Shown in pieces: positions 1 to 46,736 of a stretch of DNA of 64,000 nt (position 1 is its first letter; each line of letters starts with the position of its first letter). The notes beneath the pieces are model-generated. The model was not told the DNA's origin and made no database searches. It saw only the letters and a program-made list of their open reading frames with translations. This DNA comes from a virus: IMG/VR virus record IMGVR_UViG_3300032289_002472, positions 49,068 through 113,067 of that record, one strand, 5' to 3'. The position numbers and the translations under genes are program-made.

Positions 1-57
1 AGTTTATTTTATATTTTACCATCATAGTTTTGTTGTTGTTTATGTGTTGTTGTTGAG

Positions 58-128
58 AGCGGGATGACGGAATCGAACCGACGTCTCCTGTTTGGAAGAC
101 AGGGGTTTTACCATTAAACTAATCCCGC
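58..128 (-). tRNA. tRNA-Gly(TCC)
   Basis: Reverse complement GCGGGATTAGTTTAATGGTAAAACCCCTGTCTTCCAAACAGG...GGTTCGATTCC...ATCCCGCT; cloverleaf with anticodon TCC. Confidence 0.95.
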
Positions 129-328
129 AAGTTTTGTGGCTCGAATGCTGACTGTTACACCACGGGCCACATTAAAATCCTAAAAGTCTCTTTAACAAAA
201 AAATCATTACCCATCCCATAAAAAAGAACCATCCCATTACCCATACAAAAAGAGTAATGTACACAGCTCTTACTATTAATAAGTCTTTCTTGTTTAGTTT
301 TCCACTAGAATTCATTTTTTATATTAAA

Positions 329-406
329 TGGTCGGGATGGCGGGATTTGAACCCACAGTCTTTCGCTCCCAAAGCGAACGCGATAACCAAGTTACGCTAC
401 ATCCCG
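329..406 (-). tRNA. tRNA-Pro(TGG), encoded CCA
   Basis: CGGGATGTAGCGTAACTTGG...TTCGCTTTGGGAGCGAA...GGTTCAAATCC...CATCCCGACCA. Confidence 0.95.
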
Positions 407-507
407 TTTATTTTATTATAGTGTACTTTTCTGTGGCAATTTGCACACAAAAATAAAATTAAATGACTTGGTCAATACTATTTGATCCCAAGTCATTGTT
501 GTTTAAA

Positions 508-1197
508 CTATTTTAATGCATCAACATACATCTGCTTCAAAGACCTTAAAACACTAATTTCAATATTTTTCCTGAATCTGGAATCTTCGACCTTATCTTG
601 CATATATGCTTGAATCTCGTCATCAACTACTCGGGCAGCATACCCCATCTCCATTACGTTTTTCTTGAGCTGCTTATATTGAGCGGGTAAACCTTTTTTA
701 ATTCTTTTTGTTACCCCATCAACAAGCTTCCTGTATTTTAGGTCAGTATAGTATTTGGCATGGCGAATCTCGTGATTGAATAGATCGCCCTCTGTCTTGT
801 CAGTTCCTATAATATATCCATTCAGGCAGTTATGATATCCGACCTCAATAGTTATATCTGCAAGAATATTAGACAATACTTCGTCGTAAGGGGTCTCATA
901 GGTCTCAGTATTCTGTAATGGCATCCAGTGTTCACTGTAACACTTCACAATAACTTCTACCGGAATATTGAATCCTGACCAGTCACCAGGATAACTAAAT
1001 TTACTGTGATGATTTTTAGCGTACCAATCCATGTAGTCCCAAATTGAAAAACCTTTATCCCTAAATTTACGATTTGGAGATTCGTAAAATTCTTGAACAC
1101 GGCAAAACGTCATACCGCGCTCATATTGATCTTTAATTACTACCGCAAATATACGGGGTTCGATAATGCTGATAGTATAATTAACCAAGTGTTTCAT
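508..1197 (-). CDS. hypothetical phage protein with HExxH (possible zincin) motif
   Basis: 229 aa ORF, HEIRH motif plus downstream DEIQAY; abuts RNA ligase gene. Confidence 0.55.
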   Translation of the reverse strand: MKHLVNYTISIIEPRIFAVVIKDQYERGMTFCRVQEFYESPNRKFRDKGFSIWDYMDWYAKNHHSKFSYPGDWSGFNIPVEVIVKCYSEHWMPLQNTETYETPYDEVLSNILADITIEVGYHNCLNGYIIGTDKTEGDLFNHEIRHAKYYTDLKYRKLVDGVTKRIKKGLPAQYKQLKKNVMEMGYAARVVDDEIQAYMQDKVEDSRFRKNIEISVLRSLKQMYVDALK

Positions 1198-2195
1198 TAG
1201 TCTTTATAGTTTCTGTTAATTATTTTAAAGCTGAGGGGACGACCATTTCCTGAGGTTTTGTAGGTTACTGGACGAACTACAATACCTTCTGCTGGCGTTC
1301 CATGAAGCGTAACAGTTGAGTCTGCCAGCTCTTGAAGAGATTCAATACCAGACTGTACACCATCAAGGGTTTTGAACCCTATCAATGGCACCATATTCAT
1401 TCTGTTGTTAATACAGAAGTCGGCCATCTCATTGAAGTCGTAATACTCATAGTCTTTTTCTTTGACCTGAAATACATACAACGTTGGCTGCATCAGCTTG
1501 AGTTGATTGCCCTGAATTCCAGGACCCATTAACTCTCCCTGAATATATCCACTCCAATCTTCTTGTATTTCGAGCTTCTTGGCAGCAATCCAAAATGCAT
1601 TTGTATCACTCTCTTTTAAAGAAAGCCTTCTGCTGCAAACCTGTGTTATTTTCCCCTTTTCAATAATGATTGTACAAGAGCTACCATCTAATTTTTGAGT
1701 AATAGTGACTCCACCCTCATTAACTTTGAGGATTTCTTCAACTATATCAAAGTTAGAGAGACCATTGTCTTCGTCAGTAGAGGAAATTAAATAGCTAGGA
1801 AAAGGTCCTAGCACCTCTCCAGACAAGCAGGCAGGGATCTCTTTTTCGTATTTCTTAATTCCTAAAGCTCCACCTACGTCTGCTCCTATGTGCCAAGACT
1901 GAACATTCTCTGGTAGAACACTCAGTGGCAACAATAAGCCTTGAGAGTATTGGCCACGCAACTTTATTGTTTTGAGCCTAATCGATTTTTCTGGATCGTT
2001 CTTGTGCGCCAAAAACTCAGACCAATCAGCTGCTGGGAGAATGGTGTCAATAACGACAAAGACAACCTTATCCCCCACTTTAAATTCGTTTTTTTTAACT
2101 ATCGACTGCCATCCCAATACTTTAGCTATCTCTAAACTATCAGCATTGTTGTGTGGCACTATTTCTTTGACTACTTCAATTGAGGCAAGTTTCAT
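1197..2195 (-). CDS. RNA ligase, Rnl2/DRB0094 family
   Basis: N-terminal MKLASI...NADSLE..KV.GW OB-like domain; nucleotidyltransferase motifs QKLDGSS, QGELMG, EGIVVR, FKIIN. Confidence 0.9.
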   Translation of the reverse strand: MKLASIEVVKEIVPHNNADSLEIAKVLGWQSIVKKNEFKVGDKVVFVVIDTILPAADWSEFLAHKNDPEKSIRLKTIKLRGQYSQGLLLPLSVLPENVQSWHIGADVGGALGIKKYEKEIPACLSGEVLGPFPSYLISSTDEDNGLSNFDIVEEILKVNEGGVTITQKLDGSSCTIIIEKGKITQVCSRRLSLKESDTNAFWIAAKKLEIQEDWSGYIQGELMGPGIQGNQLKLMQPTLYVFQVKEKDYEYYDFNEMADFCINNRMNMVPLIGFKTLDGVQSGIESLQELADSTVTLHGTPAEGIVVRPVTYKTSGNGRPLSFKIINRNYKD

Positions 2196-2401
2196 TTCTT
2201 GTGTGTTTCCGTATTTATATTAAAGGTAGCATTCTTCCAGATTTTGATCTGTTCGCTAGTGAAGTGTTTAATGTGCCCTCCATCTTCTAATACAACCGCA
2301 AAGATGTCGTTTTCCCACATTCCACCATCTTTTACATAAAGAACGTATCCAGGACCAATAGGAGTTACCACTGGGATTGGATTCCTGAACTCGTAGATCA
2401 T
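2192..2401 (-). CDS. hypothetical protein
   Basis: 69 aa ORF, ATGA overlap with ligase start. Confidence 0.7.
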   Translation of the reverse strand: MIYEFRNPIPVVTPIGPGYVLYVKDGGMWENDIFAVVLEDGGHIKHFTSEQIKIWKNATFNINTETHKK

Positions 2402-2414
2402 TGACGAAATCTAC

Positions 2415-2678
2415 CTAATTCAGTAAGTTTCGTCCAGCAGAAGAATCGGGCATCATAAAGCCACTGATAACCATGTTATGCTGGTGGGCATACCCATGGG
2501 CATCATTCCAATTATGAGCCCAAATTGTCACATTCCATAGTGCATCATTAAATGTGTAATATGCATTAAATGGTTTTATCTTATCGTGTGGCCCCTCTTT
2601 AATGTCTTCGAGGTTTTCTTCGTCCTCAGTTCCATCATATCCAAAGTGACCATATAGTCGGTTTGTGTTAATATTCAT
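2415..2678 (-). CDS. hypothetical protein
   Basis: 87 aa ORF in gene-dense run. Confidence 0.6.
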   Translation of the reverse strand: MNINTNRLYGHFGYDGTEDEENLEDIKEGPHDKIKPFNAYYTFNDALWNVTIWAHNWNDAHGYAHQHNMVISGFMMPDSSAGRNLLN

Positions 2679-2804
2679 AAATGTTTGAAGATGTTAAAGA
2701 TATTGTAAAAGGGATTAGATCATTCGGCAGTCGACGAATACTAATATACAAGAATTTCACTTTTGATATTGCAAAAGACGCCAACAATACTGAAAAATAG
2801 ATAC

Positions 2805-3470
2805 ATGATACTTGTCATTTCTGACATTCATTTAGGTGCTCCAGTTTGCCAAGCAGAGTTAACTCTAAAGCTTCTTGAAGAAGAAGAGTACGACACACTG
2901 ATTATATGTGGCGATTTACTGGACAGCTATCACCTACACAGGCTTTGCAAGAAGCAATGGAAGGTGCTTTCCACACTTAGAAAGATTTCAAAGAATAAAG
3001 AGTGTATCTTCATCAAAGGCAACCACGACCAGCACATAGAGACAATCACTGCGCTGCTAGGTTTTGAATTCTATGAAGAATTCATTAAGACCATAGGAGA
3101 TAAAAAGATTCTTTTTGTCCATGGTGATAGATGGGATCATTTTGTGATGGCAAAACCAATATTGACAAGCATAGCCTCCTTTTTTTATCATCTGCTCCAA
3201 TTATTTGACAGCAAACAAAAGCTAAGCAGGAAATTAAAAAGAATCATTAAAACTTGGCACAATTCAGCCGATACACTCATGGAGCGTATCTCTAAGTATT
3301 GCGTCGAACACAAATATAATGCAGTATGCTTTGGTCATTCACACATCCCTAAAAAACATTTTTATCACGGCATAGAATGCGTAAACTTAGGATCTCAGTG
3401 CGATCTTCCAGTTACATATGCTGTGATAGATCATATAGGAAACATAATTCTTAAAAACAAAGATTATTAA
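2805..3470 (+). CDS. calcineurin-like metallophosphoesterase (LpxH/UDP-2,3-diacylglucosamine hydrolase-like)
   Basis: SDIHLG, GDLLD, GNHD, HGD, FGHSH motifs; ATG at 2805 preferred. Confidence 0.85.
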
Positions 3471-3475
3471 TTAAA

Positions 3476-3563
3476 GGATAGGTGGCAGAGTGGTCTATTG
3501 CATCGGTCTTGAAAACCGAAGGGCTGAAAGGCTCCGTGGGTTCGAATCCTACCCTATCCGCCA
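3476..3563 (+). tRNA. tRNA-Ser(TGA), encoded CCA
   Basis: GGATAGGTGGCAGAGTGG...TCGGTCTTGAAAACCGA, long variable arm, GGTTCGAATCC, CCTATCCGCCA. Confidence 0.95.
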
Positions 3564-3574
3564 CTTTAAAAAAT

Positions 3575-3647
3575 GCCCGTATAGCTCAGTTGGTAGAGCA
3601 CCTCACTTGTAATGAGGATGTCGTTGGTTCGAATCCGACTGCGGGCT
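3575..3647 (+). tRNA. tRNA-Thr(TGT)
   Basis: GCCCGTATAGCTCAGTTGGTAGAGC..CCTCACTTGTAATGAGG..GGTTCGAATCC..TGCGGGCT. Confidence 0.95.
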
Positions 3648-3664
3648 CTTTTTTAAATAAAAAG

Positions 3665-3810
3665 TACGGCTGCTTCTCATACAACCTTGCGGGTGAGAAA
3701 GCTAACGCGAGCCGTTCACGGGTCGATGGTGACCATCCCCCTTATTACAGGCATGACCTGCTTCTTTTCATCAGTGGGTTCTGACTAGCGGCTCATTACG
3801 CCACAGCAAC
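3665..3810 (-). ncRNA. unidentified multi-stem structured RNA (~145 nt)
   Basis: Nested pairings on minus strand: GAGCCG/CGGCTC enclosing TCAG/CTGA, CAGG/CCTG and GATGG/CCATC stems; TTCTCA/TGAGAA with CC-GCAA-GG; GC-rich intergenic. Confidence 0.55.
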
Positions 3811-3815
3811 TTTTT

Positions 3816-4676
3816 CTACTCAGCGGAAATCTTTGTAGAACACTTTCCTCCACAGCATTTCTTTCCCTTGCTCTCTTTGTCAATTTCCAATATAGCAGCA
3901 ACGTGATTTTTTTGGACGTCAATACCTCCGCGCACAAGAGCATCTGTTAATTCACAGACGGAAGGGCATCTACCAAGCTTTTCTTCAAGCTCCTCTGCTC
4001 CAAAGATAATGTTTTGAACACGTTGATGAAAGTTAAGGTTGATCATACCTTCTTCGGTTGGATCCTCCTCTTGGTTTTTCATTTCAACAACTGCTCTTAC
4101 CTGGTTCTCAGAAAATGAAGAGCCGTAGCTGATGCTTAAAAACTCTGCCATCGTACGTAAGTTAGGTTCAGTTCTAAATCCTAACGTCTGTTTTCTTGAG
4201 TTATATTCACTAATGATTCTTTCAAGCTTTGTGTAAACATTCATAGGAATGAAAGCTAATCCTTCATCAAACTCATCATTGGATTCATCATCAAAATCGC
4301 TTAAATCTTCGTTTGAATCTTCAGGAGTTTGATAGTCATCAAAATCTTCCTCGTCTTCGTCAATGAATTCACCATCACGAGTGTATCCATTAATTTCTAA
4401 GAACTCTGCCAAGACGTCGTTGATGACTTCATTAACACTTACATCTTTCTCACAAGAAACTTTGATGAGATGTTCAAGAATGTCCCTGGGCCATTCTTCT
4501 GTCTCAAGCTCCAGAGTAACGAACTTTTCGAGAAGAATAGATCCGTCATTTTGATGATAAACGCTAAATTTATCTCCCTGATTCAATCCTAGGACTCCTA
4601 ACTCCTCTTCCGTAAAGGAAATTAAAAGGTCTGTGGATTGTTGCAATTTCTTTGTAATAGTCTGTCGTTTGTTCAT
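3816..4676 (-). CDS. hypothetical protein with N-terminal AbrB/MazE-like domain and acidic linker
   Basis: DLLISFTEEELGVLGLNQGDKF resembles swapped-hairpin AbrB fold; ATG at 4676 preferred. Confidence 0.55.
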   Translation of the reverse strand: MNKRQTITKKLQQSTDLLISFTEEELGVLGLNQGDKFSVYHQNDGSILLEKFVTLELETEEWPRDILEHLIKVSCEKDVSVNEVINDVLAEFLEINGYTRDGEFIDEDEEDFDDYQTPEDSNEDLSDFDDESNDEFDEGLAFIPMNVYTKLERIISEYNSRKQTLGFRTEPNLRTMAEFLSISYGSSFSENQVRAVVEMKNQEEDPTEEGMINLNFHQRVQNIIFGAEELEEKLGRCPSVCELTDALVRGGIDVQKNHVAAILEIDKESKGKKCCGGKCSTKISAE

Positions 4677-4938
4677 ATTTTTGCTTTTCGTATTGGTTGT
4701 ATATTTCTTCCGCCTCAACAACCTCTGGTGAGAGCGGAATCCAGCAAGATGACAGAGAAGGAACGTGAGCGCCAGTTATTTTTTCGATATAGGCATGGTC
4801 CTCCTCCTCAATAGTTACTCTATTAAGAGCTTTAATTACTTGGGAGTTTTTAATTTTTACTTTTAGCATATTTTGGTTTGTCAAAAAAAGTAGTTGAATG
4901 GTGCCTTGAAATATGCAAAATGCATCATTGAAAGTAAA

Positions 4939-5011
4939 GGGGGTTTAGCTCATTTGGTAGAGCGTCTGCTTTGCAAGCAGAGGGTGAGGAGTTCGAATCT
5001 CCTAACCTCCA
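4939..5011 (+). tRNA. tRNA-Ala(TGC)
   Basis: GGGGGTT/AACCTCC acceptor with G3:U70; CTGCTTTGCAAGCAG anticodon arm. Confidence 0.95.
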
Positions 5012-5031
5012 AACTAAAACACAAACACAAA

Positions 5032-5604
5032 ATGAGCGAAAAAGTACTAAAAAAAGTAATGTCTCCAAAAGACTTCATTGAACATAAAATCACTCTCGAT
5101 CAATACAATTTAATTGAAGAATACGAGAAACACTTAAGAAGAGAAATTGGTAATAGGAATACTCTATTTACTGATGAAAAAGATGACGCAAAACTTAAGG
5201 GTGCCGCCGTTGAGGTTATCTTAAGTTTATATGAAAATATGGTGTTTGGTGATGGGCAAGATTGTGATCTTTATTACAAGGGGTGGGGAGTAGAAGTGAA
5301 AGGTCAAGGATGCAACTCTAAACCAAGCATAGACTTTGAAGTTTGGATGAAGAAATCCCAATCAATTATTACTCCTGCAAAACTATTGGTTGCTGCAAGG
5401 GTTTTAAATAGAAAGAACGAGAACGAAAGGCTTCACACAGCTTGGATATGTGGAATTATTCCAATGGAAGAATTTATATCAATTGCAGACTATATTCCAA
5501 AAGGAACAATGAAAAACTATGGCCCTGTCAAGATAGATAAAATTGAAACGCCGTATAAAAATTTATACGCCCCTAAACAATTTTTTAGAGCGCGGTTAGC
5601 TTAG
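5032..5604 (+). CDS. putative PD-(D/E)xK nuclease-like protein
   Basis: GAAVE...DCDL..KGWGVEVKG pattern; ATG at 5032 after tRNA-Ala. Confidence 0.5.
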   Translation: MSEKVLKKVMSPKDFIEHKITLDQYNLIEEYEKHLRREIGNRNTLFTDEKDDAKLKGAAVEVILSLYENMVFGDGQDCDLYYKGWGVEVKGQGCNSKPSIDFEVWMKKSQSIITPAKLLVAARVLNRKNENERLHTAWICGIIPMEEFISIADYIPKGTMKNYGPVKIDKIETPYKNLYAPKQFFRARLA

Positions 5605-5661
5605 CGGTAGAGCAGGTCCTTTACACGGACAAGGTCGGGGGTTCGATCCCCTCACCGCGCA
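5590..5661 (+). tRNA. tRNA-Val(TAC)
   Basis: GCGCGGT/ACCGCGC acceptor; GTCCTTTACACGGAC anticodon arm; GGTTCGATCCC. Confidence 0.95.
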
Positions 5662-5662
5662 T

Positions 5663-5884
5663 TTAATTTGAAGCTAAAGCAGAAACTTGCTTTGAGGCCT
5701 CAAGCTCTTTAACTCTTTTTAAGTAAGTATATGGACTACTAGCAAAAACTCCATGAGTAGGACGAGTAAACAAATCCTTAATCTTTCTCTTGATTAAGCC
5801 GTATGCTGATTGATTACTTTCCCCCTCAGCATTTGCAATCTTAGAGGAAAGCTCAATCAAGTATGTTTCAGCATACTTATTCAT
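5663..5884 (-). CDS. hypothetical protein, MNKY-leader family
   Basis: Starts MNKYAETYLIELSSKIA at ATG 5884. Confidence 0.65.
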   Translation of the reverse strand: MNKYAETYLIELSSKIANAEGESNQSAYGLIKRKIKDLFTRPTHGVFASSPYTYLKRVKELEASKQVSALASN

Positions 5885-5885
5885 T

Positions 5886-6614
5886 TTAGCCCCCAACTGG
5901 ATATAGTGGTGGTGGTGGTGGAACGGCTTTTCCTGTGTTGGGATCAATTTTATAGAAATTTTGTTTCATTTTATTTCCCAATGGCGTTACTGCATTGGGA
6001 CCCGATACAGAGCCTGGGCCATAATTTGCTAAATCCATCTGCCCCTCATTAATCATTTGCTGTTCTGAAGGCATGATCATTTGACCATTTGGAATTTTTT
6101 CAACCCTCAATTGAGGTAAACTATCCTTTAATCTCATTTGAGGTGCGGATGAATTAATGCTTTTAGCTGCGTTTTCAACCCTCAATTGAGGTAAACTATC
6201 CTTTAATCTCATTTGAGGCGCGGATGAATTAATGCTTTTAGCTGCGCTCCCAATGCCTCCAAACATGGCCCCCAGGCCACCTCCAATAGCGCTTCCAGCT
6301 GCACCCAGAGCGGCTGCAGGATTAACCATAGGATTAGTTGCCAAACCTTTTATGTTCCCAAAAGCAGAACTTACCTGGTTGCCAATTGAATTTGCAACAG
6401 AGCCTAAAATACTGGGCTGTGAATTACCCATATAATTACCTCTTCTGCTTGGAGGAACACCACGAGAAACTGTTTTAGGGTTAAGCAACCCACCTCTTCC
6501 AACTAAGCCGCCTCTATTGCTATAGGGGACTCCCATAACAGTAGGAGGAGTATAAGGATCGGCTGCAGTCTTTTGGCTCAGCTCATTTAAATAGGTTTTT
6601 GTATATTTATTCAT
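5886..6614 (-). CDS. Gly/Ala/Pro-rich protein, MNKY-leader family (possible virion protein)
   Basis: MNKYTKTYLNELSQKTAA; GAAGSAIGGGLG segment; internal 25-aa duplication. Confidence 0.7.
   Translation of the reverse strand: MNKYTKTYLNELSQKTAADPYTPPTVMGVPYSNRGGLVGRGGLLNPKTVSRGVPPSRRGNYMGNSQPSILGSVANSIGNQVSSAFGNIKGLATNPMVNPAAALGAAGSAIGGGLGAMFGGIGSAAKSINSSAPQMRLKDSLPQLRVENAAKSINSSAPQMRLKDSLPQLRVEKIPNGQMIMPSEQQMINEGQMDLANYGPGSVSGPNAVTPLGNKMKQNFYKIDPNTGKAVPPPPPLYPVGG
6097..6246. repeat. 75-bp tandem duplication (2 copies, 1 mismatch)
   Basis: 6097-6171 vs 6172-6246; encodes AAKSINSSAPQMRLKDSLPQLRVE twice. Confidence 0.95.
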
Positions 6615-6626
6615 AGCTCAAATTAT

Positions 6627-6845
6627 TCAGTTTACAGAAGTCCCCTGTGTTATAGCGCTAGCACTAACTTGTGGAATGTTTTTGGTCGGGTCCATTGTAG
6701 CTCCTAGGCCACGTGCTTCTCTACGCTCTTTTCGATAATCTGCGACCATTGTCATTAGCTTATCAAAGTTAGGAATTACTTTGGAAAGCAACCCATCTTG
6801 AGCAGCTTTAAGGTGTCCAAAATAAATATCTGCGTATTTATTCAT
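6627..6845 (-). CDS. hypothetical protein, MNKY-leader family
   Basis: MNKYADIYFGHLKAAQ. Confidence 0.65.
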   Translation of the reverse strand: MNKYADIYFGHLKAAQDGLLSKVIPNFDKLMTMVADYRKERREARGLGATMDPTKNIPQVSASAITQGTSVN

Positions 6846-7619
6846 TTAATAAAGTTTAACAGATAAGACCCCATCGTCAACAACTCCATAATGCTTTTCT
6901 GTGTCCAAACACCAAGATTCATGTGCCTCACCTTGAGCATATATCTCTGGATCAACAAAGGTTGTGTGACCAAAGATTTGCTTACCAATATGCTTTGAAG
7001 GAGTAAACTCATGTCTTCCATCCAGCCAAAGAAGCCCACCTATTTGAGCGCTTCCATATCTGCATCGGCCCACATCGGTAATGAAGTAATTACGATTATG
7101 AGAAAAATTTCTAAAGTTTGACCAAACATCTGGCAATACTTTATCAATTAATTCATCAATTGATTCATTAAAATTAAGATGGTCGGGCATTATTCCAGCA
7201 TGTGAATAAATAATACCCTGAGACTTGTAAGCTAATTTTATATTTTTTGCGAAGAATTCATCTCTCAAGTTGTTATCAAAAAACACCTTACGAAATTGCT
7301 TGGCTTTATTTTTGGTAAAGCCTGAACAATAGTATTCTCTGACTGGAACAATATTAGTGTGGGAGTGAGCCTTGTTTAAATAGATATATTGTACGTCATG
7401 GTTGCCCAACAAGAACACGAACTTGTCCCTTTCGGGATGATCCGTCATTAGGTCTCGCAAGAATAGACAGGTATCTAAAAAAGACGCGACATGCGGAGGT
7501 TCAAAAAAGGAGTCAAACCAGTCACCCAGAAAGACTACCTCATCATAGCTTTCTTTTTTAAGCACATCCTCAACCAAAACAACTCTTTGATGTATATCAG
7601 GGATTATTAAAGTTTTCAT
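6846..7619 (-). CDS. calcineurin-like metallophosphoesterase
   Basis: PDIH, LGDWFD, LGNHD, HAG, FGHT motifs; ATG at 7619. Confidence 0.88.
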   Translation of the reverse strand: MKTLIIPDIHQRVVLVEDVLKKESYDEVVFLGDWFDSFFEPPHVASFLDTCLFLRDLMTDHPERDKFVFLLGNHDVQYIYLNKAHSHTNIVPVREYYCSGFTKNKAKQFRKVFFDNNLRDEFFAKNIKLAYKSQGIIYSHAGIMPDHLNFNESIDELIDKVLPDVWSNFRNFSHNRNYFITDVGRCRYGSAQIGGLLWLDGRHEFTPSKHIGKQIFGHTTFVDPEIYAQGEAHESWCLDTEKHYGVVDDGVLSVKLY

Positions 7620-7624
7620 AAAAA

Positions 7625-8215
7625 ATCGGCTGTCGTGTCTCAAGGTCTACGACGAATACTTTCGAACAGATAGGTCTATAGTTAGCGCCCTATCCTAGGT
7701 ATATCAACTCGCCTCGCCTGAAGAAAGTCAAATGAATGACTTTCTAACTCTCGGTGGCCGTCACCGTGCTTATGGTTACAACACCCCATTTTTGCGGAAA
7801 CCATCCGCTTCTATCGTGAGTAGGATCTCACTAGAAGGCTAGTTATGCCCTCACGAATTAATTGAATGGCCCTAAACTATAACGGCGTCGGCTTGCGCTA
7901 CTAACCTCTTTTTCTAGACTATGGTTAGTAGACCATTCAAAGTAAAGAGACGGAAGGCCGTGTACTGTGGCACTCTATACTATAGGTATAGCGCCAAACC
8001 AGCTTCCCGAAATATATTTCGGGAACCCCGAAGCACCGCAACCTTCACCCATTTGGGCAGCTCGGTCTGCCGAATACTCAGCAGCATCTCAAAGTATCTG
8101 TAACAAATTCATTCGGAACCCATAATGTCTGCAAAGTATCTTCATGATAATAGCAAACACAGCTTTGAGTATCACCTTTATCTAAGATAGATTGTAGCTG
8201 AAATTCTGTATAATC
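7625..8215 (-). ncRNA. large structured non-coding RNA (~590 nt), family unidentified
   Basis: No credible ORF; many stems (AGAAAGTCA/TGACTTTCT, TTCCCGAAA/TTTCGGGAA, CTACTAACC/GGTTAGTAG, TTGAATGG/CCATTCAA, CGGTG/CACCG, GTCGT/ACGAC); G-U pairs favour the minus strand. Confidence 0.7.
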
Positions 8216-8264
8216 AGGAAATATACAAAACTTTTTAATTTGTGTATTTGTATTCATTTTAAAA

Positions 8265-8342
8265 TGGAGGTGGTCGGAATCGAACCGACGTTATGAGAAC
8301 TATTGATTTGTGTCAACACTCATACGAAGCCAATGCACCCCC
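8265..8342 (-). ncRNA. tmRNA-like tRNA-like domain only (mini-tmRNA), Ala identity
   Basis: GGGGGTG/CACCTCC-A acceptor with G3:U70, stemless D-loop CATTGGCTTCG, long irregular stem instead of anticodon arm, canonical T-arm GTCGG-TTCGATT-CCGAC. Confidence 0.7.
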
Positions 8343-8347
8343 CTAAA

Positions 8348-8902
8348 TTAGTCTTCTTCGGGCACAGGAGTATAATCTAACTCTTTTGCCTTTTCGGAGC
8401 AAAGAGTTTTAAACCACCCACCCCTAGAGTGCAAGCTTCCAGGAGCTCCTGTCACTTCACACGTTCTGCCAGAAATATATTCGGCAAAGTCTACAGCGCT
8501 TTGAATTCTTTGATCCAATTGCCAGTAGTATGCTTCTACTTTATCTAAGTCTAATTTTTCCCTTCCAGGAAAGTCTTGTTGCATTGCCTTTATGTAAAAA
8601 TAGACCCTAAGAGTAGCATACTTTTCTTTTATCTGTGTGAATATGACCTCAGGAGCTGGAAGATAAACTATATTATCTTCCCAGTGCTCTTTGTCTTTTT
8701 TATAAAACTCATCTTTGACCCCCATGGTATGATTACTTGTAACCATGCGCTTTATATATCCACAAAGGTCATCAAGTATTTTATACCAACCATCGTCGCA
8801 TTCGCACCCAAAACACATTAATGATTCTGTGGGTGGAAGTTTATGTCCTTGAAAAAACTCGGGGTATTTTTCAGTTAGTGACTTTTTTAGCTCTTCTTTC
8901 AT
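8348..8902 (-). CDS. conserved phage hypothetical protein
   Basis: GWY.IL...QIKEKYATLRVY...TCEVTGAPG pattern seen in a common phage family. Confidence 0.7.
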   Translation of the reverse strand: MKEELKKSLTEKYPEFFQGHKLPPTESLMCFGCECDDGWYKILDDLCGYIKRMVTSNHTMGVKDEFYKKDKEHWEDNIVYLPAPEVIFTQIKEKYATLRVYFYIKAMQQDFPGREKLDLDKVEAYYWQLDQRIQSAVDFAEYISGRTCEVTGAPGSLHSRGGWFKTLCSEKAKELDYTPVPEED

Positions 8903-9147
8903 TTTTTCGAAGAATGGTTATTAGCAGACTTTTGCCAAACTTCATAATGTATTCCTACACACCCCTTCTTTTTTCTCTTTTTAATTCGTTGAACTAAAGC
9001 CGCATGTCGACAATTTCGTTTAACTTCGTCCATGATTTTGTAAGCCATGGTCATCTCTCCTTCAAGAAAGGGACCAGCTAAAATGTGAAAACCATTAGAC
9101 CTAGCCTCTTTTTCTGTAATGTATTTGTGATTAATTAATTCGCTCAT
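8899..9147 (-). CDS. hypothetical protein
   Basis: ATG at 9147 downstream of tRNA-Leu; ATGA overlap with next gene. Confidence 0.65.
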   Translation of the reverse strand: MSELINHKYITEKEARSNGFHILAGPFLEGEMTMAYKIMDEVKRNCRHAALVQRIKKRKKKGCVGIHYEVWQKSANNHSSKK

Positions 9148-9168
9148 GTTGTTGTTCTTTAAAATAAA

Positions 9169-9249
9169 TAGCGTAGGAGGGACTCGAACCCTCAAGACTT
9201 TCGTCGACAGATTTTAAGTCTGTTGTGTATGCCATTCCACCACTACGCC
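9169..9249 (-). tRNA. tRNA-Leu(TAA)
   Basis: GGCGTAGTGGTGGAATGG..ACAGACTTAAAATCTGT..variable arm..GGTTCGAGTCCC. Confidence 0.92.
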
Positions 9250-9257
9250 CAAATTTA

Positions 9258-9398
9258 CTATTTAGCTATGCCCCGCTTTTGTAATCTCTTGAGTCTTGCC
9301 TTGCGAGCATATTTGCTCTCGTGCATTGGATCCTCTTCAAGCATTTTGCGACGACGTTCTTCTTTTTCTTTTTGTATCTGTTCTCGTTTCTTAGACAT
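9258..9398 (-). CDS. small basic protein (46 aa), not in ORF track
   Basis: MSKKREQIQKEKEERRRKMLEEDPMHESKYARKARLKRLQKRGIAK fills the gap. Confidence 0.6.
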   Translation of the reverse strand: MSKKREQIQKEKEERRRKMLEEDPMHESKYARKARLKRLQKRGIAK

Positions 9399-9400
9399 GT

Positions 9401-10201
9401 TTAAAACATACGTGTAAAGGCGAGCGTCCCCATTGGTATTTGAGGTACTCCATTGCCATAATTTCTCGATCCGTAATAGATGTGTGGGCTGTGAATATAA
9501 AAATGCCCAGCCTTGTTATTTGAGTTTGTCTCTGCCATTTGCCTGATCTCTAAAGCTAGTGCTTTTAATATATTTTTTGTGTTGGGGGAATAAGTATTCT
9601 TATCCACCCTTTTCCACATGTGATCATCATCAACTTGTATATCCTTGAAGGTCGGTGTGTGCTCCCATTTACGAATTAAGTCCGCACAGAAATAAACAGA
9701 ATTTCTAGACTTTAATCCAAGGGTTAACATCAAAACTGAACGAGGACCACTATTTATATCTTTAGACAAAATAGCGTTTATATCATTCATGACAGAAGGA
9801 CAAACATAACCCAAATAATCAGCATAAATAATATCAAAATGATGATCACTAGGAATACCTGTCTGTGGGCTTCTGATTAAAGCTTCTGACAGGTGTCCAT
9901 GCTGATGGGTCATGTTGAATGTAGCTCTACCCCCATAATCGTTTGACAACTGTTCAGCCACAGAAGTAGCCATAGAATGAATACTAGGATTGTTTTCGCA
10001 TCCCCAAAAACAAAATCTGTTCTCAGGAAAACTTTCAACAATGCTTCTTTCATGTGCCCACTCTTGGGCTGGTAGTGTCAGAAAATTAACTGTCTGTCCC
10101 TTTTCAAGGGCTGAAGCTAGTAAGGGAGCGATAAATCTATTACTGTAATCTTGATCCAATCTTTTATTACGATTCTTTTCTGGGCATGATACAAATGACA
10201 T
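9401..10201 (-). CDS. SAM-dependent methyltransferase-like protein
   Basis: FLTLPA..WAHE / WGCENN / FDIIYADYLG pattern of class I MTase strands; ATG at 10201 preferred. Confidence 0.5.
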   Translation of the reverse strand: MSFVSCPEKNRNKRLDQDYSNRFIAPLLASALEKGQTVNFLTLPAQEWAHERSIVESFPENRFCFWGCENNPSIHSMATSVAEQLSNDYGGRATFNMTHQHGHLSEALIRSPQTGIPSDHHFDIIYADYLGYVCPSVMNDINAILSKDINSGPRSVLMLTLGLKSRNSVYFCADLIRKWEHTPTFKDIQVDDDHMWKRVDKNTYSPNTKNILKALALEIRQMAETNSNNKAGHFYIHSPHIYYGSRNYGNGVPQIPMGTLAFTRMF

Positions 10202-10616
10202 GTTTCTTTGAAATAGACTTGATGCATTTTTCAATTTCTTTCCAGCTACACCCTTGAAGACTGCACCCAAGCTTGTATGGAAAATAAAGATTAATATTAG
10301 GAAATGCTTCGACGATCTTTGATAAAGATTGCTTAAATGCTAAATATTCAAACTTGTTTTGATTGTTATTGGGCATCAAACAATAAATATTAGCGACACT
10401 AAGCTCATCAGTTACACGAACAACAGAAGACTGACCCAACACATCCAATGGAGATCTCTTGAGTGTAGTTTCAATATGTTCCTGCAAAACCTTAGGGAAT
10501 TTTTTGGTAACCTGGAAAGAAAACCCGCCTGACATTTGATCACCGCAGCTCACGGGGTGAACAATCACCCCAGAGCTAACGGTAAGAACGTCTTTTACTA
10601 CTGTAGCCATGGTCAC
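10167..10616 (-). CDS. macro domain protein (Poa1p/TARG1/DarG-like), divergent
   Basis: VIVHPVSC..MSGGF...KKFP, VANIY, FPYKLGCSLQGCSW..I..CI. Confidence 0.7.
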   Translation of the reverse strand: MTMATVVKDVLTVSSGVIVHPVSCGDQMSGGFSFQVTKKFPKVLQEHIETTLKRSPLDVLGQSSVVRVTDELSVANIYCLMPNNNQNKFEYLAFKQSLSKIVEAFPNINLYFPYKLGCSLQGCSWKEIEKCIKSISKKHVICIMPRKES

Positions 10617-10984
10617 ATAGCTCCAACAGTTTTGATTAGATCTTTCTGTTTGCCATAAGTGTAAACAGCATCCAGAGGAATAACTCCATTCTCAAGACCC
10701 TTTACCATGGCATTGAACCCTGTCGATTCGCGCAGTCTTTCATAAGCTAAAATCCAGATCTCTCTGGGCGTAAGCCTTTTTTGAAGCGCTATTGTTTTGA
10801 TCATTTTGTTAAGTCGTTTGCGGTCAGAGTTGGTCTTCTCAGACACTAGCTTCTTAGCAATCTTCTTTTGTTGTTTAGGCAAATTAGATTGATAAATTAA
10901 CTGCAGTGAATCAACAACCTCAGTCGAGGCATCAGAAAATTTTTTAATAGAATTATTTAAGTCTAGTAGTAGTTGTTCAGGCAT
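10613..10984 (-). CDS. hypothetical protein
   Basis: 123 aa ORF with ACACA-rich leader. Confidence 0.7.
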   Translation of the reverse strand: MPEQLLLDLNNSIKKFSDASTEVVDSLQLIYQSNLPKQQKKIAKKLVSEKTNSDRKRLNKMIKTIALQKRLTPREIWILAYERLRESTGFNAMVKGLENGVIPLDAVYTYGKQKDLIKTVGAM

Positions 10985-40581: not shown

Positions 40582-42091
40582 GATCTAGGCTCACCTCAAT
40601 TCTGCGAGTCTCCGAACCACTCGGAGGACTCAGTGTGTTAAATAAGACCAATAATTTTTGAGCTTTTTCTGGGCAGGCAGATTGTATAAAGCTAATTTTG
40701 CCACGTATACTTTCAAGAGAACTCTGATAATTCAGCAAACTCTTATGTTTAGTGGTGGCACTATTCAGGCTTAATATTTCTTTTCTGACTGCTTCTATGT
40801 ATCTGGAAGACACAGTGGGTTTACCGGAGTTTATGATATACCCGACAATGTCCATTCTACCACCAGTACCCAAGATCCTTGTTTTCTTGTTATTAAGCTC
40901 AAAGCCATGGTTTTTAATAATCCCTTGGATAGAAGAAATAAATATATTTATTCGTTTCTTCCCCATGCGTTCTGTCCATGTGAATGACATGTCGTCCGCA
41001 TAGCGGGAATATATTGCCCCATGCTTTTGCGCAAATCCAGTCAACCTATAGTCCATTCTTTTAACGGCAATGTTACTTAGTGTTGGACTGGTTGGAGATC
41101 CTTGCGGTAGAAATCTGTGGCCTGGTTTTATCTGACTTCCTAAATTTAATAGGTCTTTAAAAGCATCAAAAACAGATGATTTATCTATCCATTTGTTTTT
41201 AATGGCTATCTCTATGATCCAACAAATATATTTTGAGAGAAAAGATTTAAAAACAGTACTACTTGTAAGTACCGAATTACCTCTCATATACACCGGAAGC
41301 TGAGCTACCATTTGTTGACTAAAAAAATTGTGTACGTAATTCCAACTTAAAAGAGAAAAACATGCATCAACCATCAGTTTGATGGCATTTTTTTGTGTAA
41401 ATAGAATGGTTGAATTATGTAAAATATATTTTGTATTATCTTTGTCAAAGCCATGAGCTGACAGAGCATTAGTTAGATCACTGCTCAAAACACTTCCGAA
41501 AAAGTTTTTAATGTCTAGGTTCACTAACAATTCTATTTTTTTTTCGTGACCCAATAAATGAAAATTAGCACAGTCAAAAGCAGACCTATTTATTGCAAAT
41601 CCAAATGCGCTTGAATGTACATTAATATAGCTTAGGTCTCTTTGTATCTTAGACTGAACGGCTTTTAGCTCATTAAAAGGAGCTAAAATTATCCTGCAAT
41701 TTTCAGTTTGCTCTTTTGCTTTAGATAAAAATCCAAATACACTAGAACAAATTTCATACAATTCTTTTTCAGTAGTTTTGTTTTTATCTGCCTTTAGCGC
41801 TTTGCTTAGTTTTTGTCTAAACGAAACAAACAGCTTTTCGGCAATGTGTTTATCTATCTTTTCTTTTTCATAGACATTTGTCGTTAAGTCTCTTTTGGCT
41901 AGCTCCTCTATCCTCCATATTGAATACAGAGAATTGTTAAGATGGGAAACAAACCTTGGATAAAAACTTTTGCCAACGAACAAAGATCCTATCAATAGCT
42001 CAGACAAAGATGTGGGAGACGCTGTGCGTCTCCCACTCTTGGGCAAAGAAAAAACCCTATAATTTAAGTTGTTTTCATTATGCGTCGACAT
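40574..42091 (-). CDS. retron-like reverse transcriptase
   Basis: RIILAP..ELK.VQ, SAFGF, CANFH (region X-like), LDIKNFF, LPQGSPTSPTLSN, YSRYADD, LNNKKT, IVG (region Y-like). Confidence 0.92.
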   Translation of the reverse strand: MSTHNENNLNYRVFSLPKSGRRTASPTSLSELLIGSLFVGKSFYPRFVSHLNNSLYSIWRIEELAKRDLTTNVYEKEKIDKHIAEKLFVSFRQKLSKALKADKNKTTEKELYEICSSVFGFLSKAKEQTENCRIILAPFNELKAVQSKIQRDLSYINVHSSAFGFAINRSAFDCANFHLLGHEKKIELLVNLDIKNFFGSVLSSDLTNALSAHGFDKDNTKYILHNSTILFTQKNAIKLMVDACFSLLSWNYVHNFFSQQMVAQLPVYMRGNSVLTSSTVFKSFLSKYICWIIEIAIKNKWIDKSSVFDAFKDLLNLGSQIKPGHRFLPQGSPTSPTLSNIAVKRMDYRLTGFAQKHGAIYSRYADDMSFTWTERMGKKRINIFISSIQGIIKNHGFELNNKKTRILGTGGRMDIVGYIINSGKPTVSSRYIEAVRKEILSLNSATTKHKSLLNYQSSLESIRGKISFIQSACPEKAQKLLVLFNTLSPPSGSETRRIEVSLDHE

Positions 42092-46343: not shown

Positions 46344-46736
46344 TTATTGTGCTTGTCTTGGTTCAAAATGTCCGTCTTCAAAAATTTGCATAGATCTGTT
46401 TTTGAATACTCCAGCTGTCCTAGAAAATTCTAGGGCTGCGAGCATAGTAGATTTAGCATTGTTTAGCGCTAATTCATTTGCCTCTTCTTCAGACGACTTT
46501 TGTGTAGGAATTTGATAGAAGGGAAAAGTGCAACTAAATTTGTCGTCAACAATTACAGTTAGAGCAGCAAAAGATATTTTGCCTGCCATGATTTCTCGCG
46601 CTATTGCGGGTGAAATTGCGGCAGCCAGTCTGCCAGCAATCTGTCCCTGAGGTGATGCATTTTCCAGACCAGGCGGTAAATTACCATCCGCTGGAATATT
46701 AGTTTCTTCGTTGTTTGATTCTTTTTCTTTTGCCAT
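46344..46736 (-). CDS. hypothetical protein
   Basis: 130 aa ORF. Confidence 0.65.
   Translation of the reverse strand: MAKEKESNNEETNIPADGNLPPGLENASPQGQIAGRLAAAISPAIAREIMAGKISFAALTVIVDDKFSCTFPFYQIPTQKSSEEEANELALNNAKSTMLAALEFSRTAGVFKNRSMQIFEDGHFEPRQAQ

Follow-up and report, generated by a model that had tools for sequence, protein, structure and literature searches.

What is a 78-nt RNA gene that resembles the tRNA-like head of a tmRNA doing in the genome of a large phage, and is it a working gene or a leftover? Trans-translation is the main ribosome-rescue and quality-control pathway of bacteria as well as an antibiotic target. The gene lies in the terminal 64 kb of a 113-kb IMG/VR virus record (CheckV completeness 72%), and this whole stretch of analysed DNA is referred to as the window. 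The record belongs to a large, tRNA-rich freshwater phage with a GC content of 38%.

Architecture and identity of the RNA

An earlier note, made from the DNA letters alone, had described the locus as a mini-tmRNA with a tRNA-like domain (TLD) and no mRNA-like domain. Its coordinates (Table 1) were right, and the minus strand was the sole addition needed to its description. The alanine acceptor with G3:U70 and discriminator A that it had pointed out is seen in the sequence, where GGGGGUG pairs with CACCUCC at all seven positions, and the alanine identity elements G3:U70, A73, G1:C72 and G2:C71 are all present. The tmRNA-style stemless D-loop (GGCTTCG in the DNA) is present as described and aligns to the D region of the tmRNA consensus, and the T-arm is canonical, with 5 bp around UUCGAUU. 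Both acceptor strands are contiguous and in the standard (unpermuted) order within the 78 nt. The closed long stem that was said to replace the tag-coding region was recovered in the centroid fold as a hairpin of 6 bp, a 3-nt bulge, 6 bp and a 6-nt loop, and the fold energy z-score of the RNA was -2.63. A D-stem and an anticodon arm with an alanine anticodon are absent from the window RNA.

Table 1 Features of the mini-tmRNA gene and its surroundings, and of two phage records that carry both RNA forms. Positions are those of the window unless another record is named.
Feature	Positions	Strand	Remarks
Whole mini-tmRNA gene	8265..8342	minus	78 nt; G1 = 8342, discriminator A = 8265; CCA unencoded
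Acceptor stem, 5' strand (RNA positions 1-7; G of G3:U70)	8336..8342	minus	7/7 paired with 8266-8272
4-nt linker CAUU and stemless D-loop GGCUUCG (positions 8-18)	8325..8335	minus	alignment to tmRNA consensus D region
Closed P2-like hairpin, 33 nt (positions 19-51), replacing the mRNA-like domain	8292..8324	minus	centroid fold
AC dinucleotide before the T-arm (positions 52-53), counterpart of conserved 'GGAC'	8290..8291	minus	class alignment
T-arm (positions 54-70): 5-bp stem, loop UUCGAUU	8273..8289	minus	Rfam and R1 alignments
Acceptor stem, 3' strand (positions 71-77; U70)	8266..8272	minus	sequence pairing
Upstream ORF, 184 aa	8348..8902	minus	co-oriented; stop codon 5 nt before the RNA
Downstream ORF, putative, 59 aa, Cys-rich	8078..8257	minus	co-oriented; ATG 8 nt past the discriminator
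Terminator-like hairpin, candidate end of the transcription unit	8018..8032	minus	consensus scan only
tRNA-Ala(UGC)	4939..5011	plus	ARAGORN; CCA unencoded
RNA ligase, PHA02142 OB domain	1197-2195		Pfam/PHROG matches
Calcineurin-type metallophosphoesterase	6846-7643		PHROG hits include RNA-ligase family
Phosphatase-like ORF	10167-10616
Full-length tmRNA, record G001 (L009 contig)	88065-88440
Mini-tmRNA, record G001 (L009 contig)	41861-41933
Full-length tmRNA, record G032 (L145 contig)	77588-77979
Mini-tmRNA, record G032 (L145 contig)	46486-46567

That only the tRNA-like domain is left was borne out by the Rfam tmRNA model RF00023, which matched the RNA at 48.8 bits (gathering score 47; E 3e-16 in the 64-kb window) in an alignment that spans model positions 1-374 and reduces 314 internal positions to 23 nt; the score comes from the TLD alone. 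The highest RF00023 score among the ordinary tRNAs of the record was 17.6 bits. The earlier note had suggested ARAGORN and a comparison of the tmRNA with the mitochondrial tmRNA model as checks. ARAGORN called neither a tRNA nor a tmRNA at the locus and nine tRNAs elsewhere in the window, among them the separate, normal tRNA-Ala that the note had mentioned. In the Rfam clan competition the tRNA model was beaten by tmRNA, and RF00023 rather than the mitochondrial model came out on top of the clan; the tmRNA_permuted model gave 11.4 bits. A second tmRNA piece, also raised there, was sought throughout the 113-kb record, and neither another tmRNA nor a permuted tmRNA piece was found at Rfam gathering scores. 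A micro tag frame within the hairpin (five codons followed by UAG) was considered and rejected, as it is buried in a stable helix and starts without an alanine resume codon, and as the loops of the shortest listed members of the class described below (about 4-8 nt) leave no room for any frame.

We are highly confident that the gene is a phage tmRNA reduced to its TLD and a capped P2-type hairpin, of the 'TLD only' family of phage DS6A, and it is a divergent addition to this known but poorly charted kind of tmRNA. With standard tmRNA (SsrA, RF00023) it shares the TLD, that is G3:U70, A73, the GG-UUCG D-loop and the T-arm, whereas standard tmRNAs are 350-395 nt long and contain a resume codon, a tag frame and pseudoknots, none of which was found in the 78 nt of the window RNA. 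Organellar tmRNAs without a coding sequence (CDS) are similar in that only the tRNA-like part is left, and their SmpB is supplied by another genome; unlike the window RNA with its standard order, they are mostly circularly permuted. Such CDS-less tmRNAs persist alongside SmpB in jakobid mitochondria (RF02544; PMC11915505), and two CDS-less genes of about 65 bp are reported from Mallomonadaceae plastids (PMC11915505). Full-length phage tmRNAs, as in the mycobacteriophage Bxz1 group, Bacillus phage G, Melnitz and pelagimyophages (PMC4131195, PMC9004378), are likewise phage-borne parts of trans-translation that rely on host SmpB, but they encode a tag and the window RNA does not. A two-piece (permuted) tmRNA has a permuted order and a separate coding piece, neither of which is in the window record.

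Mini-tmRNAs as a class and the subtype of the window RNA

Hudson, Lau and Williams (2014) list 'Mycobacterium phage DS6A (TLD only)' (PMC4131195), and the 2025 tmRNA database holds nine 'Standard, no CDS' sequences in total (PMC11915505); we found no description of phage mini-tmRNAs as widespread in the literature. IMG/VR was scanned with a degenerate pattern (acceptor, D-loop, 20-50 nt, T-arm, acceptor) that left two acceptor pairs free. At least 120 contigs matched, and the matches listed gave 90 unique sequences of 61-86 nt, all with 7/7 acceptor pairs. RNAalifold applied to these 90 listed sequences returned a 7-bp P2-type stem, six pairs of which had compensatory changes in 40-49 of the 90 sequences and the seventh in 21. 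A covariance model (R1) was then seeded with 32 main-class sequences from the listed matches, with the window excluded, and recovered all 90 listed unique sequences. In the model-guided alignment of the listed sequences, 97.7% of the base-pair cells were paired (67.5% when shuffled, 42-54% in slid controls), and the covariation score was 0.67, compared to 0.13 for shuffles and at most 0.10 for slid controls. Two-sided changes were seen at all eight P2 pairs and at the free acceptor and T-stem pairs of this alignment; the T-stem pairs were 100% paired, with compensatory changes, among the listed class sequences. The column of A52, in the dinucleotide that precedes the T-arm, is nearly invariant (A at least 90% conserved among the class sequences listed; alignment A1). 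The earlier note had allowed that relatives might reveal a decayed ordinary tRNA; instead, the relatives keep the fold through compensatory changes, and R1 scored the window RNA at 53.5 bits (E 1e-10), while the tRNAs of the window reached 20.4 bits at most. Since ARAGORN was silent at 114 of the 120 loci among the matches listed, while the Rfam tmRNA model passed 36 of the 37 minis tested (scores 45 to 81), mini-tmRNAs usually go unannotated.

The DS6A mini-tmRNA (JN698994 28478-28557; L136 979-1058) scored 59.6 bits with R1 and has the main-class architecture, and because it fits the same model, the window RNA belongs to the DS6A-type family. Both are phage-encoded, about 80 nt long, in standard order and unannotated, and both have an alanine acceptor, a stemless D-loop, a T-arm and a closed hairpin that replaces the mRNA-like domain. 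They differ in the junction at the base of P2, which reads UUCGAC...G(G/C)AC in DS6A and UUCGU...AAC in the window RNA, and in the hairpin itself, as DS6A has P2 plus an inner CCGCACGCGG-type hairpin and the window RNA a plain, bulged 12-bp helix. Host lineage and phage type differ as well. The DS6A gene, which is unannotated in GenBank, sits between gp33 and the DNA polymerase III gene gp34, directly upstream of the latter, whereas the window gene lies in an island of tRNA and RNA-repair genes, 20 kb from dnaE.

Within the class, the window RNA is among the weakest members: it ranks 84th of the 90 listed by R1 score, and its 48.8 bits with the Rfam model compare with 45 to 81 for the 37 other minis. 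The consensus junction UUCGAC ... GGAC forms a C-G pair and two sheared G-A pairs; in the window RNA (UUCGU ... AAC), one G-A pair is retained and the other is replaced by U-A, next to the elbow that faces SmpB. Also missing is the inner UAAA/CCGCAUGCGG-type hairpin that the main class has in common with DS6A; a plain distal helix of similar total length stands in for it. The same junction was found at loci L226, L042, L053 and L131, which argues for a subtype difference and not for decay. Over metagenomes, the strict pattern gave no match and a looser pattern a single relative, L226, a metagenome contig with a GC content of 33.5% whose RNA (R1 50.6 bits) is of the same subtype as the window RNA. 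Its 5' 19 nt are identical to those of the window RNA at 18 of 19 positions, and three P2 pairs and two T-stem pairs have changed on both sides; the contig had no proteins in common with the window (tblastn with all window ORFs). From these sequence comparisons, the variant looks like a subtype rather than a product of decay.

Searches for a closely related phage were negative. When the region and the RNA were compared by megablast and blastn with 50,697 isolate phage records, no relative emerged, and the only matches were to tRNA-Leu or short and confined to the T-arm. Two of the short ones, in Klebsiella phage KpS110 and in Prochlorococcus phage P-SSP3, were looked at further, and neither phage bears a mini-tmRNA. 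No relative was found in IMG/VR with the upstream 184-aa ORF, nor did tblastn with every window ORF detect a related phage among about 180 mini-bearing loci. A conserved protein partner beside the minis was also sought by clustering 4,180 neighbouring ORFs, which returned lineage-specific synteny only, and none of the clusters included a window ORF. One high-GC phage lineage (L007 6339-10692 and about 25 related loci) carries its mini inside a late structural operon, where it lies downstream of the portal and is flanked by the prohead protease (PF04586) on one side and the major capsid protein (PF05065) on the other. The annotated 'tmRNA SsrA' of Stenotrophomonas phage Yut3 (PV130724 67691-68064; L003 1144-1517) overlaps tRNA-Thr and tRNA-Leu and is probably a gene-caller artefact that bridges the two tRNAs. 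Klebsiella phage vB_KpnM_KpS110 has an unannotated match (L124 2668-2881; 48.7 bits, gathering score 47) to STnc100, a gammaproteobacterial sRNA family.

Genomic setting and a lead to the origin

The gene lies between two co-oriented ORFs (Table 1). The upstream ORF had no Pfam, PHROG or SmpB match and is grouped by the Atlas with viral hypothetical proteins; that it could be a hidden SmpB analogue, in line with the smpB-ssrA gene order, was rejected on these grounds. The downstream ORF had no family match in Pfam or PHROG. No promoter signal was found above background (10 promoter-like sites, 13.6 expected). Given the co-oriented neighbours and the lack of a distinct promoter, the RNA is most likely cut out of a polycistronic transcript by the enzymes that process tRNAs. 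The missing CCA is normal for this phage, as seven of the nine tRNA genes in the window, tRNA-Ala included, do not encode it either. In its first six base pairs (GGGGGU with ACCUCC), the acceptor stem of tRNA-Ala is identical to that of the mini-tmRNA.

The surroundings include, within 9.3 kb, seven tRNA genes, an RNA ligase and a phosphoesterase. By appearance, window positions 1-10700 form an island for translation and RNA repair, and the set of genes resembles heal-and-seal tRNA repair systems. At the contig end (window positions 60001-64000), the GC content jumps from about 0.38 to 0.52, and the dominant feature there is an 853-aa ORF without a Pfam match (61097-63658, minus strand). Neither SmpB nor a tyrosine integrase nor a CCA-adding enzyme was found in the 113-kb record. 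SmpB was also absent from another 37 long viral records that bear a mini, of which 15 are at least 90% complete, so any SmpB partner would be the host's.

Of about 185,000 species genomes, no more than 29 contained an exact match to the 3' 22 nt of the mini-tmRNA. Where the contig was long enough upstream (27 of the 29), the match was the end of a full-length tmRNA gene of 350-395 nt; the contigs of the other two end within 85 nt. Most of the 29 belong to Acidobacteriota/Blastocatellia (loci with 45-60% GC) or to the Bdellovibrionota classes Bacteriovoracia and Oligoflexia (32-39% GC). The first 13 nt of the window RNA are the same or nearly the same in full-length tmRNAs of these phyla, with an exact match in seven of them, and its rare GGCUUCG D-loop is common to one Bacteriovoracaceae tmRNA. 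This suggests that the ends may have been captured from, or may mimic, the tmRNA of such a host, with the body lost afterwards, and the identity with Acidobacteriota and Bdellovibrionota ends provides a lead to a host or donor, short of a host assignment. To our knowledge, the DS6A mini is not identical to the tmRNA ends of its own host.

A possible competitor of host tmRNA and the alternatives

What the RNA may do was approached through its alanine identity. A second scan, keyed on internal TLD features and with the acceptor left unconstrained, returned at least 103 unique sequences. Among the 103 listed, 99 had a perfect 7-bp acceptor; G3:U70 and A73 were each present in 99 of 100 listed sequences, and G1:C72 and G2:C71 in 99-100 of 100. 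Pairs 4:69 to 6:67 were variable in both scan sets. Because the alanine identity is near-invariant although the search did not require it, chargeability by alanyl-tRNA synthetase (AlaRS) appears to be under selection. Two IMG/VR phage records (Table 1) carry a full-length tmRNA together with an unrelated mini that has different acceptor and T-stems, and in G001 the tag encoded by the full-length tmRNA has 21 residues, the last of them ALAA. As both RNAs coexist and are unrelated in these records, the mini is neither a substitute for a phage tmRNA nor its broken copy, and as each of these phages carries one of each, one form cannot stand in for the other. In vitro, a tmRNA that consists of the TLD alone can act as acceptor in peptidyl transfer (Shimizu and Ueda 2006, as cited in PMC3895274). 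The near-invariant alanine identity, the lack of a phage SmpB, peptidyl transfer and coexistence favour a charged RNA that engages SmpB and ribosomes against the host tmRNA, and they suit blocked rescue and tag-free rescue alike.

We lean mildly towards the reading that the RNA acts as a charged competitor which would use host SmpB and thereby uncouple or block ssrA tagging. It would be co-transcribed with its neighbours, excised like a tRNA by host RNase P and 3' processing enzymes, given its CCA by the host enzyme and charged with alanine by host AlaRS through G3:U70 and A73. The mini-tmRNA would then bind host SmpB, as the phage encodes none, and compete for SmpB, EF-Tu and stalled ribosomes against the full-length tmRNA that the host makes. 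Since it has no resume codon or tag frame, ssrA tagging and the ensuing degradation would be lowered or blocked, and phage proteins and non-stop phage mRNAs could be protected late in infection or under attack by host RNases. The experimental precedent is Mao et al. 2009 (RNA Biol 6:355). As reported in PMC11915505, endogenous tmRNA of E. coli is inhibited by the DS6A form; PMC4131195 reports strong inhibition by a DS6A-like molecule whether or not it can be charged, with titration of SmpB as a possible cause. Inhibition in E. coli by a TLD-only RNA of this type speaks for the competitor (PMC4131195, PMC11915505), but that it did not need chargeability, as stated in PMC4131195, fits the near-invariant alanine identity poorly. 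An outright block of rescue would also strand ribosomes that the phage needs, and the presence of a full-length tmRNA and a mini in two records is hard to square with a pure shutdown of trans-translation. Furthermore, the window RNA itself is weak-scoring, with an altered junction beside the SmpB-facing elbow and no inner hairpin.

Rescue could instead be productive and tag-free, a reading that we consider rather unlikely. Here, the alanine-charged mini-tmRNA with host SmpB and EF-Tu would enter an empty A site and accept the nascent chain, and the complex would be resolved by drop-off and peptidyl-tRNA hydrolase, by ArfB-type factors or in another round; released proteins would have an extra alanine and no degradation tag, so that the phage would add to its rescue capacity and keep its proteins. 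It would account for an alanine identity that is near-invariant among the listed sequences without being required by the search, and it agrees with the in vitro peptidyl transfer to a TLD-only RNA (PMC3895274), with the jakobid mitochondria that keep CDS-less tmRNAs alongside SmpB (PMC11915505), with phages that keep both a full-length tmRNA and a mini, and with the island of seven tRNA genes, RNA ligase and metallophosphoesterase, which suggests upkeep of translation under RNA damage. However, no release mechanism is known after peptidyl transfer to a TLD-only RNA, and the sole experiment reported on this RNA type gave inhibition and not rescue (PMC4131195, PMC11915505). A more elaborate version, which we regard as unlikely, would have an active, alanine-charged rescue RNA work with host SmpB and free stalled ribosomes while leaving the product untagged, as part of a 'translation maintenance' island of tRNAs, RNA ligase and phosphoesterase directed against RNA-cleaving host defences; its ends would be tuned to the tmRNA of the host lineage, which by end identity would be Bdellovibrionota or Acidobacteriota.

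T-elements are tRNA-like processing signals in plant mitochondria, and like the window RNA they are tRNA-like folds between coding regions that are likely cut by RNase P and RNase Z. As such a signal, the RNA would merely separate the messages of two ORFs and play no part on the ribosome, which would suit its position between co-oriented ORFs, 5 nt past a stop codon and 8 nt before an ATG, and the lack of an evident promoter of its own (10 promoter-like sites, 13.6 expected). Cutting needs neither aminoacylation identity nor a tmRNA-type D-loop, yet G3:U70, A73 and this D-loop are kept in 99% of the listed class and in the window RNA, and the contexts of most listed class members are varied; we therefore judge a t-element improbable. 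A non-functional remnant, either a decayed tRNA-Ala or a captured host tmRNA that is drifting after an internal deletion, seems very improbable to us. The RNA is in the lowest-scoring tier of its class, no close phage relative was found to show conserved synteny, and both of its ends resemble those of full-length tmRNAs from Acidobacteriota and Bdellovibrionota, in keeping with capture and a later deletion; however, its four helices are intact with zero mismatches, L226, an unrelated contig, shares the subtype and shows compensatory changes, and tRNA models score below tmRNA, the Rfam clan winner, while ARAGORN sees no tRNA. The identity of the 3' 22 nt with the 3' ends of full-length tmRNA genes, found in the 29 matched bacterial species genomes, could also come from a relic of an attachment site, part of an attP that mimics the 3' end of host ssrA. 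This is extremely improbable, as attP cores copy the 3' part of ssrA only, whereas the window has the 5' acceptor strand and the D-loop at tRNA spacing, and no tyrosine integrase was found in the 113-kb record. The charged competitor remains the reading that we favour.

Overall, a phage RNA that imitates tmRNA in nothing but its tRNA-like head would be a natural inhibitor or a by-pass of trans-translation. The published record has one example of a phage TLD-only RNA, DS6A. The window instance adds to the evidence that mini-tmRNAs are widespread in phages, structurally conserved and missed by ARAGORN, and that they are selected for alanine identity and dependent on host SmpB. Its own contributions are a divergent subtype, in which the G-A junction is altered and the helix is long and plain, a setting among the tRNA and RNA-repair genes of a large phage, and identity at both ends with the tmRNAs of particular bacterial phyla. 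If it is true that the ends of minis are tuned to the tmRNA of the host, mini genes would be markers for host prediction.
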